Below, piece after piece: positions 11,239-27,867 of a stretch of 64,000 nt of DNA; positions within the stretch are counted from its first letter, which is position 1; every line of letters starts with the position of its first letter. Under the pieces are notes generated by a model that saw only the letters and a list, made by a program, of their open reading frames with translations, did no database searches and was not told where the DNA came from. Source of the stretch: Escherichia coli (lineage in GTDB: Bacteria; Pseudomonadota; Gammaproteobacteria; Enterobacterales; Enterobacteriaceae); NCBI RefSeq assembly GCF_016903815.1, contig NZ_CP069973.1; one strand, 5' to 3'. The position numbers and the translations under genes are program-made.

Positions 11239-11314
11239 GCCGATATAGCTCAGTTGGTAGAGCAGCGCATTCGTAATGCGAAGGTCGGAGGTTCGACTCC
11301 TCTTATCGGCACCA
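11239..11314 (+). tRNA. thrW: tRNA-Thr (CGU anticodon)
   Basis: 76-nt sequence GCCGATATAGCTCAGTTGGTAGAGCAGC…GGTTCGACTCCTCTTATCGGCACCA with cloverleaf features and encoded CCA; position after proA matches thrW. Confidence 0.9.
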
Positions 11315-11328
11315 TTAAAATCAATAAG

Positions 11329-11595
11329 TTACACATCATTAGTACCTTCCTTATTTTTTGACTGGGACAAATTTGGGACCGATGGGTTCAGGACTGAGTC
11401 TATTTGCCGTGCGTGTTCGGTAAGGTGATTAGGCGCGAGGTGAGCATATCGACGAACCATTTCGATAGACTCCCAGCCTCCCATTTCTGAAAATGCAAGA
11501 AGAGAAACACTGGACTGAACCAGCCTGCTTGCCTTTGCTATCAAAGTACCTTGAAGGCCAGATGATTTCTGGCGATATTTACAGCGCTTCCGCAA
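11329..11595 (-). pseudogene. Tyrosine-recombinase (phage integrase) C-terminal remnant
   Basis: ORF ends in …[30 protein letters not shown]…, a typical P4-like integrase C-terminus; the upstream part is degenerate and there is no room for the catalytic core; lies 15 bp from the tRNA 3' end. Confidence 0.7.
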
Positions 11596-11677
11596 TGAGT
11601 TTTTCTCTGTGCCGCCAGAGGCGTTCCCCGCTTTTTCAGCACCGCAATAATGTCGGCGGAATGCCAGTCCTGTTGCA

Positions 11678-12148
11678 TCATGCGGCCACCTCGCTGATAA
11701 ATTTTACGCCGTCGGCGGTACGCAGCCAGCGTGGGGCTTTGAGTCCTTCCGTGAAATACCAGACCAGCTCACACAGCAGCCCGGTCAGGGTTTGCTCCAT
11801 TTTTGGTTCCGCCGGACGTTCCAGCAGAAGCTGGAGTAGTGCGAGGCAGTATTCGCACAAGGAATCAGGTTCGGAAATAAAGTGCTCTGGTGTGGCGGGA
11901 AGGGTATCCACGGTCAGGCTTTCGGTAAGATGCGGTGGGATGGGGTCGTGTAGTGTGGGTTGCAGTAGCGCAAGAGCCGCGTGAAGCCGCCCGCAGAGCG
12001 CCAGTCGTAGCGCTGGATCGTCGGTTTCAATCAGGGTTTCGGCAAAGCGGGCGCAGTAGTCAGCAAGGACAGTGAAATCCGTGGTGGCATTGAAGGGGAC
12101 GGTCAATAGATCGAGTAAATCGCTGTCAGTGGTGAGGATTGTAGCCAT
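11678..12148 (-). CDS. Hypothetical acidic protein (156 aa), unknown function
   Basis: Clean ORF with an AGGAGG-like RBS (ggaggttgcc) just upstream of its ATG; leucine/acidic-rich; no family recognised by eye. Confidence 0.5.
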
Positions 12149-12494
12149 AGGGCAACCTCCGATAAGTGGGTGTTCAAGCCACCACCGGAGAGGCTAATCT
12201 CGCGGGTGGTGGAACCGGGCAGGGTTAGCCTTACCAGCCTTATCGGACACTGGCGCGTCTTGCGACGCCCCCGCCCGGCCCACCATTGAGATGTAACCGT
12301 GCGAACAACACAAAAAAAGACGCTGGCGCGTCATGTGTCGCCGATAAGATTTCTTCAGGAGGCTAATCCCGACGCCTGATTTTGCAGGCGCGGGAGAAAG
12401 ATACTGCGATTGGTCATGAGTGGCAAGGGCTACATCATGTTTACCAACATCTCACGCAAAAATACCCTGATTATTAATAGCGAAAATCAGTTTC

Positions 12495-15400
12495 TTATTT
12501 TGGCGGTAGCTTTTTGCGGTTCTTTGCCAACTGGAATCCTTCAGGTAACGGTTTGAATTTATCGCCGCCTTTAGGCCAGCGTTTTGCCCTGCTCTGAAAT
12601 GCCCTTAACGAGTCGATATCCAGCGTTGCAGCGACCACAAAGTCATTATCACCGCCCTTCACACGAGCAATATCACGCATAAAGGGTTCTTTTGCCGGGG
12701 AACGTACGCGACTATCGCCGTATTTTCGGTTATTCACTAAAATAGTATAGGCATGAATATCCAGCGCTGCTGATTCAATCAACGATGCAAACGTATCTAG
12801 ATCTTTATTCCAGCTCAATACCATTAATGCATCGAGTGCGCCCTGAAAACGGATCCTCGCTTTACTATTCTGGAGTTCAGAGCAAATCATAACGCCAAAA
12901 TTGACGCCGTGATGAATATATACCGGCTTACGTTGTTTAACATTAAGTGTCGAATCCCAAGACTTACCATAAATTGAAAATAATGCCTCATCTTCACCTA
13001 CGGCGGGTTCCAGCTTGGGTTGCCATATTTTGACACTCGCTGGATAGCCGAGTCTGTTATCTGAAAGGACAAGTACGGCCTCACTCTTCAGTTGATTATC
13101 GTCTAAGTGGCGGTATTCTGTTCCCGCAATTAGACTGATACCCGCCGAACTCAAACGATCAGCAATACTGTTAACCCAGCGTAACGGGATTGAAAGCTCA
13201 GGGAATAAAACATAATCAGGTTTAGGAGATAGTTTCAATGTTGCATTAACCAGTTCAGAAATCCGCTGGTACCTTGAACGGGACAAGTTAGATTTATTGC
13301 AGGCCATTTTAGCCCAGTCGTCCTCCTCTGTTTTAATGCTGGTTAGCGCAACGACAACTTTATGTTTCCTGTCTGTGCCAATATGAATGAATTTCTTAGG
13401 CCGAGCTTTTTTTGTCGCTTCATCTGAGTCCTGCTCCGATGCTAGCAACGTCGGTTTGATCCATACTCCGCGTAATGCTTGAGTATATTTTGCCCAAATG
13501 GTGGACGGTCTCTCATCTGGTTTTTTGTCGGATGTGGAGGGTAATCCAACACATTCGGGGGCCAGTTCTGATATTTCAGCGGGTGTTAAAGGACGTGTAG
13601 GGAAAATGTAAGGTAGGTAACTTTCGTTCTTACGATTTCCTTTAGCCACTTTTTCCAGTCGGGTATTCTTGGTTGATTTCAAAAATAGCTTAATAACGTC
13701 AATATCAATAAGCGATGAGTCGCTCATTAATTTCAGTATTTTAACTTCTTTTTTACTATCACGCTGATTAACAAGTTTTTCTGCCGACTGACTCTTTACG
13801 ATCTGTTTATAAGGTTCCTTTGCTAAATCAGCTCGAGCTACCAATGGCGCTTTTAAATAAAAATCTGCTGAATCAAAGCGAAGATCCAGTAAATCCTTTA
13901 GATTCGTCAGACTTTGTGAAATATGATTAAAAAATGTATCCGCAAGGCACTCTTCTTTCTTTGAACGTTTATCAAGAAATAATCTGTCAGGACTGTAATA
14001 TCGTGTCGCTGCATCAACAAATAGCCAGCTTAATGTGCCTTTTATACAGCGCCAAAGATCATTTACTGCTCGAGTTTTGCAACCATTTATATTCACTTCC
14101 TTACCTGAAGTAATCACCGATGCCAACAGGTTGATGGATTCGTAAGCTTTAAGTACAATTTTTTCCGCGTGCTGCCATTCATTCATACTGATAGCAAAGC
14201 CAAGCAGCCTTGGCAGATAACTAAAATGTGCAAATAGATTATCAGCCCTAAGAATATGGTTGTAGGCAAACTGATAAAACTCTTCCCGCTGTTCTTTCCA
14301 TTCACTTGGAGGCAGATCTCGTGCCAGTGTTTCAACGTAGCGTAATTGCAGTGACCAGCCCAAACGACGAATGGTTAATCCATCCGCACGGCGCAGAGTA
14401 TCGGCATTTTCACCTACACTACCGGCAGCGGAAAGGACTTTAGCTGCGGTGGAGTGTTCCAGTTGATCCGGTGAAGGCATCAAGCGGTGTTCACTAGAAA
14501 GCTCGTAGATCTCCTTTTCGATACTGTCGAGCAGGTCTATTCCAGCCCTCCCTTGAAGCACGAAAAGTTTTTGCTTATCGGATTGTAACTGGATGGTGGT
14601 CTTACCCTGGAAATGCTCGCCCTGCTGTATTTGCCATATTTGTTTTTGCTCGTTTTTCAAATAAACGCAATCATTGCCAAGCCTATCTTGCAGCAATAAC
14701 ATAAATTCGTGATTATTAGTAATTGTCCCTGTATCGCGTATTACAAGGAACATATCATCGACATAACGACCGTAGTGAATTGGTGATAGTTTTTCAATGA
14801 CTAATTTATCCCAATGGTGTAGCAATATATTTGAAATGATCCGACTGGCTGTTAATCCAATGACCAGACCACCATTAATAACAGGTGTTTTGTACGCTAT
14901 TTTCTTTCCAAATGCCGCTGCGCCGTCAGACCAGTGCTTTAAGAATACTGCTAACTGTGCAGTAAACGCTTTTTCATCCTCAGTCAGTTTTATGTTTAGT
15001 GTGTTATAGAGATCATCAGAGGTTATAGCCAGTGGATCAATAAAATGATAGTAACTTTTTAAATCCAGTGAGGCGGCGATAATGTCACGATCTTTTTCCA
15101 ACTCGTCACGTATAGCTTTTAAGCCATCACCACGCCATTTTTGGTAGGGCTGGAAGTAGGGGCTAAAAGAACCCACGGCACTGATATGGAATGGATTATC
15201 CTGCTCATTGCTAAATAATTCATCATTACGAATACGCTTTAGCCGCGCGCCATAGCAACAGTTATCTAAGCTGGCATCAAATTTATGCCCGACCATGTTA
15301 ATCCATAGTGCAGAGATAATGTGACTATCAACCGGGAAGTCACCAATAATACGAAACTCTGGTATCAGATCAAAATTATTAAATAAATGGTCGGCTGCTC

Positions 15401-15704
15401 GTTTAGGATTAGAAAAGTGGACGTGTCCATTTTGGGATTCATGTTTTTTCTTTGTGGTTAATTTTTTCGGTAACAAACGAAATTTGCCAATCAACTTCTT
15501 ATTGCTACTGAATCCATCTTCGCTCTGCAAAAGATCTAAGAGTTTTTGCAGGTTTTCAAGTAATTCCTGCTCATACTCGGCAAATTTGATAGCAACAGGA
15601 AATGTATTCTCAAAGAAGCTATCGGCTTTTGCTTTCCGGTAAGCGACCAGAAGGTCTTCAATCGTCAGATCATCCCAGCCAGTGAAAATTGCCTGATATG
15701 TCAT
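12495..15704 (-). CDS. Reverse transcriptase fused to a C-terminal nitrilase (carbon-nitrogen hydrolase) domain; candidate defence-associated RT (UG/DRT-like)
   Basis: 1069-aa ORF. RT motifs: ASLDLKSYYHFID (motif A), GLVIGLTASRIISNIL (motif B-like), YGRYVDDMFLV (YVDD at 14754-14765). C-terminal nitrilase-like triad candidates: FPELSIP (Glu codon 13197-13199), a Lys near VKIWQPK, GVMICSE (Cys codon 12881-12883). Confidence 0.8.
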   Translation of the reverse strand: MTYQAIFTGWDDLTIEDLLVAYRKAKADSFFENTFPVAIKFAEYEQELLENLQKLLDLLQSEDGFSSNKKLIGKFRLLPKKLTTKKKHESQNGHVHFSNPKRAADHLFNNFDLIPEFRIIGDFPVDSHIISALWINMVGHKFDASLDNCCYGARLKRIRNDELFSNEQDNPFHISAVGSFSPYFQPYQKWRGDGLKAIRDELEKDRDIIAASLDLKSYYHFIDPLAITSDDLYNTLNIKLTEDEKAFTAQLAVFLKHWSDGAAAFGKKIAYKTPVINGGLVIGLTASRIISNILLHHWDKLVIEKLSPIHYGRYVDDMFLVIRDTGTITNNHEFMLLLQDRLGNDCVYLKNEQKQIWQIQQGEHFQGKTTIQLQSDKQKLFVLQGRAGIDLLDSIEKEIYELSSEHRLMPSPDQLEHSTAAKVLSAAGSVGENADTLRRADGLTIRRLGWSLQLRYVETLARDLPPSEWKEQREEFYQFAYNHILRADNLFAHFSYLPRLLGFAISMNEWQHAEKIVLKAYESINLLASVITSGKEVNINGCKTRAVNDLWRCIKGTLSWLFVDAATRYYSPDRLFLDKRSKKEECLADTFFNHISQSLTNLKDLLDLRFDSADFYLKAPLVARADLAKEPYKQIVKSQSAEKLVNQRDSKKEVKILKLMSDSSLIDIDVIKLFLKSTKNTRLEKVAKGNRKNESYLPYIFPTRPLTPAEISELAPECVGLPSTSDKKPDERPSTIWAKYTQALRGVWIKPTLLASEQDSDEATKKARPKKFIHIGTDRKHKVVVALTSIKTEEDDWAKMACNKSNLSRSRYQRISELVNATLKLSPKPDYVLFPELSIPLRWVNSIADRLSSAGISLIAGTEYRHLDDNQLKSEAVLVLSDNRLGYPASVKIWQPKLEPAVGEDEALFSIYGKSWDSTLNVKQRKPVYIHHGVNFGVMICSELQNSKARIRFQGALDALMVLSWNKDLDTFASLIESAALDIHAYTILVNNRKYGDSRVRSPAKEPFMRDIARVKGGDNDFVVAATLDIDSLRAFQSRAKRWPKGGDKFKPLPEGFQLAKNRKKLPPK

Positions 15705-15998: not shown

Positions 15999-16802
15999 AT
16001 GTCTATTCAGAGGCGACAGTTGCCAAACTATCTAAACTGGCTGATGCAGCACACGCTACCCGGCCAGGTGCTGCTCCAGTCATGGCTTACCCGCAACGGC
16101 ATAGATCGTAAGCTCTCTTATCTCTATGTGAAGAATGGCTGGCTCAGGCGGATCGCTCACGGCGTATACTGCCGGACGGGTCGTGAACCGGATTGGGTGG
16201 ATGCGGTTTACTGCCTGCAATCGCAGTGGGAAAAGCCTGTTCGGGTGGCGGGGCTAACCAGCCTTGCGCTTCAGGGTCATGCGCACTATACCGAACAGGG
16301 TAAGCCGCAGGTCTGGCTCGCGCTTCCGGCTTACGTCAAACTGCCGGGATGGTTTTCTGCCTTTGAACAATCCGCAACATTTGTCACGCTGTATACGTCA
16401 GGCCTTACCGCTGATGTAACGCCATTTACTACGGAACTGAAAATTGGTGACCGGCAGTTAGCGGGCAGTGTCCCGGAACTGGTCGCGTATGAGATCGCTT
16501 GTGGCGTTCCTTCGTTGATCTCGTTCGAACATGCCGATGCTCTGTTTCAGGGGATGAATCTTCTCAGCCCGCGTAAATTGCAGGCGTTACTCTGCGCCAG
16601 TCATTCGGTTAAAACCAACCGGGTGATGCTTTACCTTGCCCGGCGTAATGGACACCCTTATTTTCAGTTTATTGATCAAAGCGGTATAGAAACAGGTACG
16701 GGAAAGCGGCAAATCATACCCGGCGGCTGGCTGGAGCCGGATTATCAAATTACTGTTCCACGCGCATTTAAACCGGAAGGAGTCGAAGATGGATCTGCGT
16801 GA
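15999..16802 (+). CDS. AbiEi-like antitoxin/transcriptional regulator (type IV TA / abortive infection)
   Basis: 267-aa ORF; N-terminal segment (…LYVKNGWLRRIAHGVYCR…) matches the AbiEi wHTH signature; overlaps the next gene by 14 bp. Confidence 0.65.
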   Translation: MSIQRRQLPNYLNWLMQHTLPGQVLLQSWLTRNGIDRKLSYLYVKNGWLRRIAHGVYCRTGREPDWVDAVYCLQSQWEKPVRVAGLTSLALQGHAHYTEQGKPQVWLALPAYVKLPGWFSAFEQSATFVTLYTSGLTADVTPFTTELKIGDRQLAGSVPELVAYEIACGVPSLISFEHADALFQGMNLLSPRKLQALLCASHSVKTNRVMLYLARRNGHPYFQFIDQSGIETGTGKRQIIPGGWLEPDYQITVPRAFKPEGVEDGSA

Positions 16803-17709
16803 TAGCTATGCCCGGCAGGTCAAACTGTTGATGGCCGCTCTGCCGTATGTGGCGAAGGAGTCCTGTTTCGCGTTGAAAGGCGGCACCGCAATCAATTTGT
16901 TTGTGCAGGATTTTCCCCGTCTGTCGGTGGATATTGATCTGGCGTATAAGAGCTTTGCGGATCGCGATACTGATCTGGCGGCTATCAACGACGCTTTGAA
17001 GAGGATTACTGCATCGCTGAACGGCAGACCGGGGATCACCGCGATTCGGCAGGAAAATAAAGCGGATGAAAAGCGCATCATTGTGAATACCGCTGATGCA
17101 AAGATTAAGATCGAGGTTAGCCCGGTCTGGCGCGGGCTGTTGTTGCCTCCGGCAGAAATGCCTGTGTGCGAACGTGTGGAAATGGAGTATGGCTTCACCA
17201 CCATGAGTGTCGTCTCGCTGGCGGATCTTTATGGCGGTAAAATCTGCGCAGCGCTTGATCGTCAGCACCCGCGCGATCTGTTTGATGTGCTGAATATGCT
17301 GGAGAAACCGGGACTGATGCGGGAGATCTTTGACGGTTTTCTTTGTTATCTGGCAGGCCATCCCCGCCCCATTGCCGAGTTGCTGGCCCCAAACTGGGAT
17401 ACAGAGCGGATCACGACGCTGTATGCTCAGGAATTTTCGGGGATGACTCAGCAGGAAACGTCGCTGGAATCGCTGCTGTCAGTAACGACTTTGCTGCCGC
17501 AGGCGTTGAAGTCACATCTTACGGATCTGGATCGCGAGTTCTTGCTCAGTTTTAAGCAAAACAGCCCTGACTGGTCGCGGTATCGCTATCCTGAAATTCA
17601 GCATCTTCCGGCTATTCGCTGGAAGCAACGTAATCTGGCGGTGCTGAAAGATAAAAATCCGGCGAAGTATGTGGCGGCGGTGAATAAGCTAGAGAGGGTG
17701 CTGGCGTAA
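16789..17709 (+). CDS. AbiEii-like nucleotidyltransferase toxin (DUF1814-type)
   Basis: 306-aa ORF with nucleotidyltransferase motif FALKGGTAINLF…RLSVDIDLAY; translationally coupled to the upstream AbiEi-like gene. Confidence 0.7.
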   Translation: MDLRDSYARQVKLLMAALPYVAKESCFALKGGTAINLFVQDFPRLSVDIDLAYKSFADRDTDLAAINDALKRITASLNGRPGITAIRQENKADEKRIIVNTADAKIKIEVSPVWRGLLLPPAEMPVCERVEMEYGFTTMSVVSLADLYGGKICAALDRQHPRDLFDVLNMLEKPGLMREIFDGFLCYLAGHPRPIAELLAPNWDTERITTLYAQEFSGMTQQETSLESLLSVTTLLPQALKSHLTDLDREFLLSFKQNSPDWSRYRYPEIQHLPAIRWKQRNLAVLKDKNPAKYVAAVNKLERVLA

Positions 17710-27619: not shown

Positions 27620-27632
27620 TGCATTGAATAAT

Positions 27633-27662
27633 AAAAATGGCGCAAATGCAGCGCCATTTTTA
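27633..27662. terminator. Hairpin terminator between yagU and ykgJ
   Basis: aaaaatggcgc…gcgccattttt stem flanked by A- and T-runs, between convergent genes. Confidence 0.55.
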
Positions 27663-27867
27663 TAGGTTAAAAACATTGCTTTTTACTTTCTGAAGCAGAT
27701 AGCCAGTGAGTACATCGCGCTACTTCAGGATGCTGTAGATCCGGAGAACACTATAGAGGAAGATGCATTGTTGCTGGCAGATGGAAGAAGTTTCGGGTTT
27801 TGTTATCCCTGAAAAACGAAGCCCCGCGGTTATAGCTGGCGGGGCAGTGCAATTAATTATTGCATAT

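Follow-up and report, generated by a model that had tools for sequence, protein, structure and literature searches.

A probable IsrK–C4 antisense-RNA cassette of the P1/P4 immunity type beside a reverse transcriptase gene in a thrW island of Escherichia coli

In the satellite phage P4, the immunity region is arranged as PLE-seqA-CI RNA (seqB)-seqC-kil/eta-alpha operon, and its cI element is an RNA despite a long-standing annotation as a protein of 137 amino acids (aa). The immI locus of phages P1 and P7 presents, according to the curated P1 annotation, the target sites a1 and b1, the C4 antisense RNA, the further target sites a2 and b2 and finally the start codon of the regulated gene. A third relative is the isrK-orf45-anrP locus of the Salmonella prophage Gifsy-1; a study of this locus demonstrated that transcription reads through the IsrK terminator and also describes STnc1160, a processed RNA encoded downstream, as well as the homology with P4 SeqA (PMC4825925). 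Here, we report on a 64,000-nucleotide (nt) stretch of the E. coli chromosome (RefSeq assembly GCF_016903815.1, contig NZ_CP069973.1; referred to as the window) that carries proB, proA and a tRNA-Thr(CGU) gene at 11239-11314, followed by a small island, the thrW island. Within this island, a block at 12149-12494 is flanked by two minus-strand genes, a reverse transcriptase (RT) of 1069 aa ending at 12495 and an open reading frame (ORF) of 156 aa with its ATG at 12148. The 346 base pairs (bp) of the block are the full gap between the RT stop codon and this ATG, so that it starts 1 nt past the RT stop codon. The block is very probably an IsrK–C4 antisense-RNA regulatory cassette like those of P1/P7 immI and P4 cI (seqA-CI-seqC), residing in the backbone of the island.

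An Rfam scan of the block, one of the checks suggested in an earlier note on this DNA, recovers two RNA families above their gathering scores, both on the minus strand. The C4 antisense RNA (RF01695) is matched at 12202-12290 with 71.1 bits (gathering score 45, E ~1e-12; model positions 1-87 of 87), and IsrK (RF01394) is matched at 12313-12391 over its full-length model with 68.8 bits (gathering score 50, E = 1.6e-13). An overlapping model, c4-a1b1 (RF03163), stays just under its gathering score of 46.7 with 43.8 bits, as P4 itself does with 44.1 bits. The prototypes were scored with the same models: P4 CI reaches 74.9 bits and P1 C4 68.8 bits with the C4 model, and P4 SeqA/IsrK 60.8 bits with the IsrK model. 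The window element and P1/P7 immI hence belong to the same RNA family, and both models match P4. The element is a member of described families that are found at default Rfam thresholds and is, in this sense, already known; it departs from the P1 and P4 prototypes only in the gene that it addresses and in its non-phage, partly decayed host island.

The predicted structure agrees with this assignment. For the C4 region, the minimum free energy fold (-51.1 kcal/mol) equals the Rfam consensus fold, with z = -4.17 and none of 200 shuffled sequences being equally stable. The plus strand of the same region folds less well (-41 kcal/mol, z = -2.2), and because C4 contains invariant G-U pairs, the minus strand is taken as the transcribed one. 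The cassette and its immediate surroundings comprise the following features, listed in the direction in which the minus strand is read:

12428-12494, no strand assigned: junction between the backbone and the RT cargo, a spacer of about 65 nt unlike both the island version with restriction-modification (R-M) genes and RT loci elsewhere (blastn)
12398-12426, minus strand: promoter-like site found in a consensus scan, with -35 TTGCCA (12426-12421), a 17-nt spacer and -10 TATCTT (12403-12398)
12313-12391, minus strand: IsrK / P4 SeqA-like leader RNA with a 5' hairpin, a second hairpin, single-stranded b1 and an intrinsic terminator
12360-12366, minus strand: a1 target (UUAGCCU on the RNA), core of the second gaggctaatc copy, complementary to a' of C4
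12341-12348, minus strand: b1 target (CUUAUCGG; ccgataag in the window), complementary to b' of C4
12312-12332, minus strand: predicted intrinsic terminator of IsrK, GACGC-GCCA-GCGUC (12332-12319) followed by U7 (terminator scan, Rfam alignment)
12202-12290, minus strand: C4 antisense RNA, the equivalent of P4 CI, with a 17-bp closing stem, an inner GCAA hairpin, the b' hairpin and single-stranded a'
12239-12247, minus strand: b' recognition loop of C4 (UCCGAUAAG; repeat search, loop comparison)
12225-12231, minus strand: a' recognition element of C4 (AGGCUAA; repeat search, covariation)
12179-12212, minus strand: hairpin CCACCACC...GGUGGUGG with a2 in its loop (-19.1 kcal/mol, z = -3.1)
12191-12197, minus strand: a2 target (UUAGCCU), core of the first gaggctaatc copy, 4 nt past the 3' end of C4
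12158-12166, minus strand: b2 target (CUUAUCGGA; tccgataag in the window), complementary to b' at 9 of 9 positions
11678-12148, minus strand: 156-aa ORF, whose ribosome-binding site (RBS) is addressed by the cassette (ORF list)
11329-11681, minus strand: decayed distal operon (RefSeq annotation of the identical locus L001, offset +3099)

The promoter-like site is the sole match of the consensus scan in 11600-12700 and predicts transcription from about position 12391, the first position matched by the IsrK model. According to the fold, the second IsrK hairpin holds a1 in its loop, and the terminator sequence consists of gacgctggcgcgtc followed by U7. All six complementary sites (a1, b1, b', a', a2 and b2) are present with the spacing found in P1. 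At the far end of the cassette, b2 and the Shine-Dalgarno sequence GGAGG (12160-12156) of the 156-aa ORF have 3 nt in common; the ATG follows 10 nt after b2.

The repeats that had first drawn attention to the block can now be assigned to these elements. The hairpin at 12179-12212 is read directly in the sequence, with ccaccacc at 12179-12186, ggtggtgg at 12205-12212 and gaggctaatc at 12190-12199 in the loop, and so is the second gaggctaatc at 12359-12368, which is followed by cgcctg (12373-12378) and caggcg (12385-12390); the latter two form the 5' hairpin of IsrK. A long imperfect inverted repeat had been described as well. Its first arm, ccttatcggacactggcgcgtc, is present at 12238-12259 and its second, gacgctggcgcgtcatgtgtcgccgataag, lies at 12319-12348, one base off the interval originally given; truly inverted are only cttatcgg and ccgataag, 8-9 nt, while the gac(a/g)ctggcgcgtc parts are not inverted. 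In a repeat search, which recovers the motifs of the earlier note, gacactggcgcgtc and gacgctggcgcgtc instead form a direct repeat (83%) of two near-palindromic hairpins. Repeats and hairpins far exceed what is expected by chance, as judged from the Rfam E value of ~1e-12, the z of -4.2 for the C4 fold and the presence of covariation.

This covariation was followed in a set of 80 distinct cassettes with 28 b'/a' loop combinations, obtained from a pattern scan of viral contigs together with E. coli and phage loci. Pairs were counted in an alignment of 23 sequences, using 500 shuffles and slid pairings as controls. The C4 fold is paired in 99.5% of the cells, with compensatory changes in 12 of its 27 pairs, and the helices between a' and its targets behave alike: a1-a' is paired in 100% and a'-a2 in 99.4% of the cells, with 5 of 7 pairs compensatory in either case. 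For each of the three structures none of the 500 shuffles was as good, and the slid controls pair in just 11-51%. The C4 fold and both helices are therefore conserved with compensatory changes across homologous cassettes. Together with the Rfam matches to C4 and IsrK, this pairing-driven variation confirms the earlier proposal that the block is a structured non-coding RNA locus rather than a coding region.

Since the MAFFT alignment handles the hypervariable b sites badly, these were analysed free of alignment. Duplex energies from RNAduplex, computed between the loop regions and flanks of 100-125 nt, proved too noisy to separate cognate from non-cognate combinations; the analysis instead relies on the length of the longest exact complement at fixed positions and on pairs counted column by column. 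Measured in this way over the 28 loop classes, b1 and b2 are exact complements of their cognate b' at a fixed position, with mean lengths of 7.6 nt (4.7 nt for non-cognate combinations) and 8.1 nt (4.6 nt), respectively; a1 and a2 likewise complement the cognate a' in all 28 classes. A role of C4 in trans, on phages of the same a2 plus b2 specificity, found no support: the pattern TTAGCCT-N15-40-CTTATCGGAG has 41 matches in viral contigs, none of them inside a C4 cassette, a number close to chance expectation by our own, uncomputed estimate.

The hairpin at 12179-12212 stands somewhat apart. It and the C4 fold are mutually exclusive, as its 5' arm doubles as the 3' half of the closing stem of C4: CCACCACC (12212-12205) has two alternative partners, AUGGUGG from the C4 5' end and GGUGGUGG (12186-12179). 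All three segments are changed jointly in L002, the R-M version of the island, to AUGGCGG, CCGCC and GGCGG. These observations suggest that the precursor can fold in different ways, with a possible gating effect on the processing of C4 or on the exposure of a2. Across the 23 cassettes, the hairpin is conserved, with 92.6% of its cells paired, but a single pair is compensatory, in 3 sequences, and because of this single pair a regulated structural switch is just a suggestion.

The RefSeq annotation implies another explanation, namely that the conserved sequence is a protein gene and not an RNA, as a coding sequence (CDS) of 57 aa named 'ash family protein' is placed at 12194-12367 on the minus strand, exactly over the C4 RNA. 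For Gifsy-1, translation of a small ORF overlapping the corresponding region, and its coupling to the downstream gene, have been reported (PMC4825925). The window translation shows a weak match to PF10554 (E = 1.2e-4), and in 13 of the 23 aligned cassettes the frame that begins at a conserved AUG in the C4 5' stem meets no stop within the aligned stretch; in some 10 of them it is in phase with the start of the downstream gene, as in P4 eta/kil. Against a protein speaks that the same frame stops after 15, 16, 27, 28, 30 or 33 codons in the remaining 10 cassettes (one of which, L075, was read from a different AUG) and that in the window it terminates at a UAG within a2. The variation follows the base-pairing described above, with its compensatory stem pairs and invariant G-U pairs, and a conserved ORF under protein-level constraint was not found. 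P4 cI, carried for a long time as a protein in the annotation, sets a precedent for such a case. Hence, a protein gene in place of the RNA appears highly improbable; the RefSeq CDS is most likely a translated RNA gene, and the Ash family was probably built on one.

The gene addressed by the cassette belongs to a family with at least 646 homologues in Enterobacterales, none of which is named except for N-terminally extended models that are labelled 'Ash' because their extension includes the translated C4 region. The 156-aa ORF has no match in Pfam, PHROG or PADLOC. Its AlphaFold2 (AF2) model, a confident one (pLDDT 82.8), is a four-helix bundle with a small beta-hairpin, and fold searches with this model matched generic helical bundles and were uninformative. 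More telling is the neighbourhood of its homologues. In Klebsiella, Dickeya, Pectobacterium and a Raoultella-like contig, IsrK and C4 precede the gene and end 54 nt upstream of it in four of four cases; a gene with an HTH_35 (helix-turn-helix) domain follows in all of them, and the cargo on the opposite side differs each time. It is thus the 156-aa ORF, and not the RT, with which the cassette is linked. As a further observation, the Shine-Dalgarno region and the first 5-6 codons (GGAGGCUGCC..AUGGCUAC, MAT.(L/P); 12140-12165 in the window) are conserved across otherwise unrelated downstream proteins, i.e. the 156-aa ORF, P4 Kil and phage Ant-type proteins. Hence, cassette and regulated gene were exchanged at a point within the coding sequence, or else the RNA makes use of these bases.

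Given that the block immediately follows a defence gene, its RNA could alternatively serve the adjacent RT as a template or scaffold, as in retrons, DRT2 and DRT9, and the earlier note had considered such a partnership. The RT is a UG5-large RT-nitrilase (PADLOC RT_UG5-nitrilase, 1034 bits) encoded at 12495-15704. The sole support for a partnership within the locus is the adjacency on the same strand, 1 nt after the RT stop codon, combined with the fact that a neighbouring non-coding RNA (ncRNA) is used by some defence RTs (PMC9226505; PMC12489045). The distribution of both elements tells against it. Of 5426 complete E. coli genomes, 1063 contain the cassette and 260 the RT, which leaves about 800 with the cassette and without the RT. 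The RT copies in E. coli are all at least 95% identical, and at least 99% with the exception of one record, and they occupy one clonal locus, to which the combination of RT and cassette in E. coli is confined. The cassette is furthermore found in RT-free islands, in other genera and in 191 phage records, for example immediately before the anti-repressor gene ant in phage PA28. Conversely, RT homologues with 70-82% identity were located in Citrobacter, Yersinia, Salmonella, Vibrio and a marine metagenome contig, and in none of these six loci does C4 or IsrK occur within 3 kb of the RT; no other Rfam match lies next to the RT either. RT relatives in viral contigs could not be confirmed, for which reason the RT contexts were drawn from genome and metagenome contigs.

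The sequence boundaries lead to the same result. Between the window and the other RT loci, homology ends at the RT stop codon (12493-12535 across loci; blastn), and a non-homologous spacer separates the RT from the backbone. In the thrW island of other strains the RT is replaced by the type I R-M genes hsdR-hsdM-hsdS (L002 8392-14358), and this version retains the block (84% identical), the 156-aa ORF and AbiEi/AbiEii; its homology with the window spans 12427-12100 and thereby starts just outside the -35 box (blastn). The pairing partners of the RNA, moreover, are its own leader and the RBS of the 156-aa ORF. For the RT family itself, no ncRNA is known (bioRxiv 10.64898/2025.12.16.694600; PMC9226505): for UG5-large of S. 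meliloti no flanking transcript was detected, no ncRNA was found and deletion of the upstream region left defence unaffected (bioRxiv 10.64898/2025.12.16.694600). The known ncRNAs of defence RTs (retron msr-msd, DRT2, DRT9, DRT3) resemble the block in being structured RNA genes beside an RT gene in a defence island. Unlike these, the block lies downstream rather than upstream of the RT, has its own promoter-like site, pairs within its own transcript and does not co-occur with the RT family. The RT is therefore separate defence cargo inserted beside the cassette backbone. We regard a template or scaffold function of the block for the RT as highly improbable, and the same low expectation applies to any direct functional tie between the two.

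Some observations concern the RT and its neighbours in their own right. At four enterobacterial loci and on the marine contig (L130-L133, L135), the UG5 RT-nitrilase is the last gene of a conserved hsdM-hsdS-KwaA-KwaB-like-RT array; at the Vibrio locus it is preceded by a gene with a weak SMC_N match. In the window the RT stands alone, whereas the sister island holds hsdRMS in the same slot. There may thus be a composite R-M/Kiwa-like/RT defence unit of which different halves are kept in E. coli. Beside the RT, an AbiEi/AbiEii toxin-antitoxin pair is encoded at 15999-17709 on the plus strand (PADLOC 258 and 386 bits). The R-M version of the island retains this pair, which adjoins the cassette module in Klebsiella too.

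The base composition had also raised the question of whether the block is a small repetitive element or a recombination junction. The GC content is indeed higher in this region (0.59 over 12100-12399) than within the RT gene (0.35-0.49), and a junction between GC-rich and AT-rich DNA does exist here: the homology of the backbone stops at 12427 and that of the RT at 12493-12501 (blastn), which places the true border between backbone and cargo at 12428-12494. That the whole block is a generic intergenic repeat or a mere recombination scar can nonetheless be given almost no weight. Dispersal over many unrelated sites, which would be expected of a generic repeat, was not observed, since the 1063 cassette-bearing genomes contain it at a median of one and a maximum of two places, and the 64-kb window contains one copy. 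Its position relative to the 156-aa ORF or to ant genes is constant, and it shows strong covariance-model matches as well as compensatory variation. The earlier note is thus partly supported, as the structured ncRNA locus and the junction are found, and the link to the RT is not.

For the function of the cassette, a mechanism can be proposed by analogy to P1, P4 and Gifsy-1. Transcription of the minus strand would start near 12391 from the sigma-70-type promoter at about 12426-12398. The majority of transcripts would end at the IsrK terminator (12332-12312) to give a leader RNA of about 75 nt that contains a1 and b1, while read-through transcripts would contain the C4 precursor (12290-12202), a2, b2 and the 156-aa ORF. 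From these, C4 would be excised; in P1, the 5' cut of C4 is made by RNase P. The excised C4 could then pair through b' (UCCGAUAAG) and a' (AGGCUAA) with b2 (12166-12158) and a2 (12197-12191), respectively. Owing to the overlap of b2 with the Shine-Dalgarno sequence, this pairing would block translation of the 156-aa ORF. By analogy with P1 and P4, Rho-dependent termination may then cut the untranslated RNA short, which would silence the downstream genes encoding the HTH and integrase-domain proteins. The upstream a1/b1 copies could act as extra target sites, or free IsrK may titrate C4 and thereby turn the operon on.

Several points weigh against this interpretation. The promoter is a consensus match at 9 of 12 positions, which is no proof of activity, and the fold of IsrK alone is unexceptional (z = -1.6). 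The putatively regulated gene encodes an uncharacterised 156-aa protein and is neither icd/ant as in P1 nor kil as in P4. In Gifsy-1, the short IsrK was found to activate translation from the read-through RNA, namely of a small ORF overlapping the C4-like region (PMC4825925); as a homologous cassette is explained differently in that study, the direction of regulation by IsrK is uncertain. Finally, the switch may be vestigial in this strain because the distal genes of the operon are pseudogenes.

The last point deserves consideration of the operon as a whole. In intact islands, it continues behind the 156-aa ORF with an HTH_35/phrog_769 regulator, sometimes HigA, the EFASI RNA and an Integrase_1-type recombinase. 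In intact relatives of the backbone (L003 4175-4303, L004 3104-3237, L132/L133 6836-6966, L177 5300-5429), the 294-aa Integrase_1-type gene is closely preceded by EFASI (RF02957, 99-119 bits), an RNA that is deleted from the window. There, the HTH gene fragment at 11582-11681 is frameshifted and the integrase-domain fragment at 11329-11532 is devoid of its N-terminus; in the interval 11315-11681, this C-terminal fragment is situated beside the HTH fragment and only 15 nt from the 3' end of tRNA-Thr. Without a working integrase the island is fixed in place. From thrW to the ykgR remnant it measures about 6.5 kb. Outside of it, an Rfam match to the IS009 RNA (RF02111, 190.7 bits), an E. coli small-RNA candidate, was noted at 27625-27825 on the plus strand.

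The cassette could hence be correctly identified and still be a mere relic, an RNA switch useless to the cell after the loss of the integrase and HTH genes. The frameshift, the truncation and the absence of EFASI between these two genes fit such a view, and the intactness of the cassette tells little about selection, as the 260 carriers are near-identical (at least 99% in all but one record). At variance with it, the 156-aa ORF is intact, and the same is true of the promoter-like site, the C4 fold and all six complementary sites. In addition, the R-M version of the island, 84% identical, keeps the cassette and the ORF and has changed b', b1 and b2 jointly (CCUGUAAC / GUUACAGG), which speaks for continued selection on pairing in the island lineage. 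A relic thus seems rather unlikely.

Conceivably, IsrK–C4, the 156-aa ORF and HTH_35 constitute a conserved three-part module that may act as the on/off switch in an as yet uncharacterised family of Enterobacterales islands integrated at tRNA genes, although this idea is tentative. If it were true, the module would always border an exchange slot for defence cargo (RT-nitrilase, type I R-M, AbiE, DUF4747, helicase-PLD), a phage-immunity RNA would have been recruited to gate excision, transfer or maintenance of the island via a new four-helix-bundle effector, and many hetero-specific 'immunity types' would exist, as in P1/P7.

The locus also calls for caution in the search for RNA partners of defence genes. 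A GC-rich structured RNA directly after a defence RT gene mimics a retron or DRT partner, yet it corresponds to a long-known phage immunity RNA, and adjacency at one clonal locus is no evidence of a partnership between RT and RNA. The cassette in turn marks the exact boundary between backbone and cargo of the thrW defence hotspot (12427/12428). The 156-aa and HTH_35 genes under putative C4 control form a widespread uncharacterised pair that should be approachable with the well-developed antisense genetics of P1 and P4.

Compared with the described systems, the window, P1 and P4 are collinear in a three-way alignment, with about 85 extra nt in P4 between the leader and CI. The likeness to P1 immI extends from the shared order of elements to their distances, as a2 follows C4 after 3 nt in P1 and after 4 nt in the window, and in both the start codon (that of icd in P1) is found 10 nt behind the end of b2. 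In P1, too, b2 overlaps the RBS and all elements are located on one transcript behind their own promoter, represented in the window by the promoter-like site. In contrast to P1, the window has no icd/ant; the gene concerned encodes the unrelated 156-aa protein and is followed by an HTH_35 gene, the host is the remnant of a tRNA-integrated island instead of a plasmid prophage, and the leader ends in an IsrK-type terminator. In P4, the kil gene (65 aa) begins where the 156-aa ORF does in the window, with the same Shine-Dalgarno context and the same first codons (MATTLT versus MATILT), and P4 and the window share the mis-annotations as 'cI protein' and 'Ash'. On the other hand, kil, epsilon, orf151 and the alpha primase are without similarity to the 156-aa ORF, and the RefSeq annotation of the island lists no P4 replication or capsid-size genes and no phage replication or structural genes. 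Control of icd/ant or of the kil/alpha operon in a functional phage or satellite is therefore not what the window cassette provides. With isrK-orf45-anrP of Gifsy-1, it shares the IsrK RNA and a C4-type RNA downstream, and it would also share the leaky terminator and own promoter of IsrK, the processing of the C4-like RNA (STnc1160 in Gifsy-1) and the translational control of the next gene (PMC4825925); its DNA is 73-75% identical to the cassette that precedes ant in records of Shiga toxin (Stx) and other lambdoid phages. A coupling of the orf45-anrP type is unlikely in the window because the small ORF over C4 ends 45 nt before the main ORF. Taken together, the RNA element of the window is a known one and its island is ordinary and in partial decay, and whereas the output of the cassette in Gifsy-1 and the Stx phages is an anti-repressor that induces the prophage, here it is an uncharacterised protein of a non-phage island.

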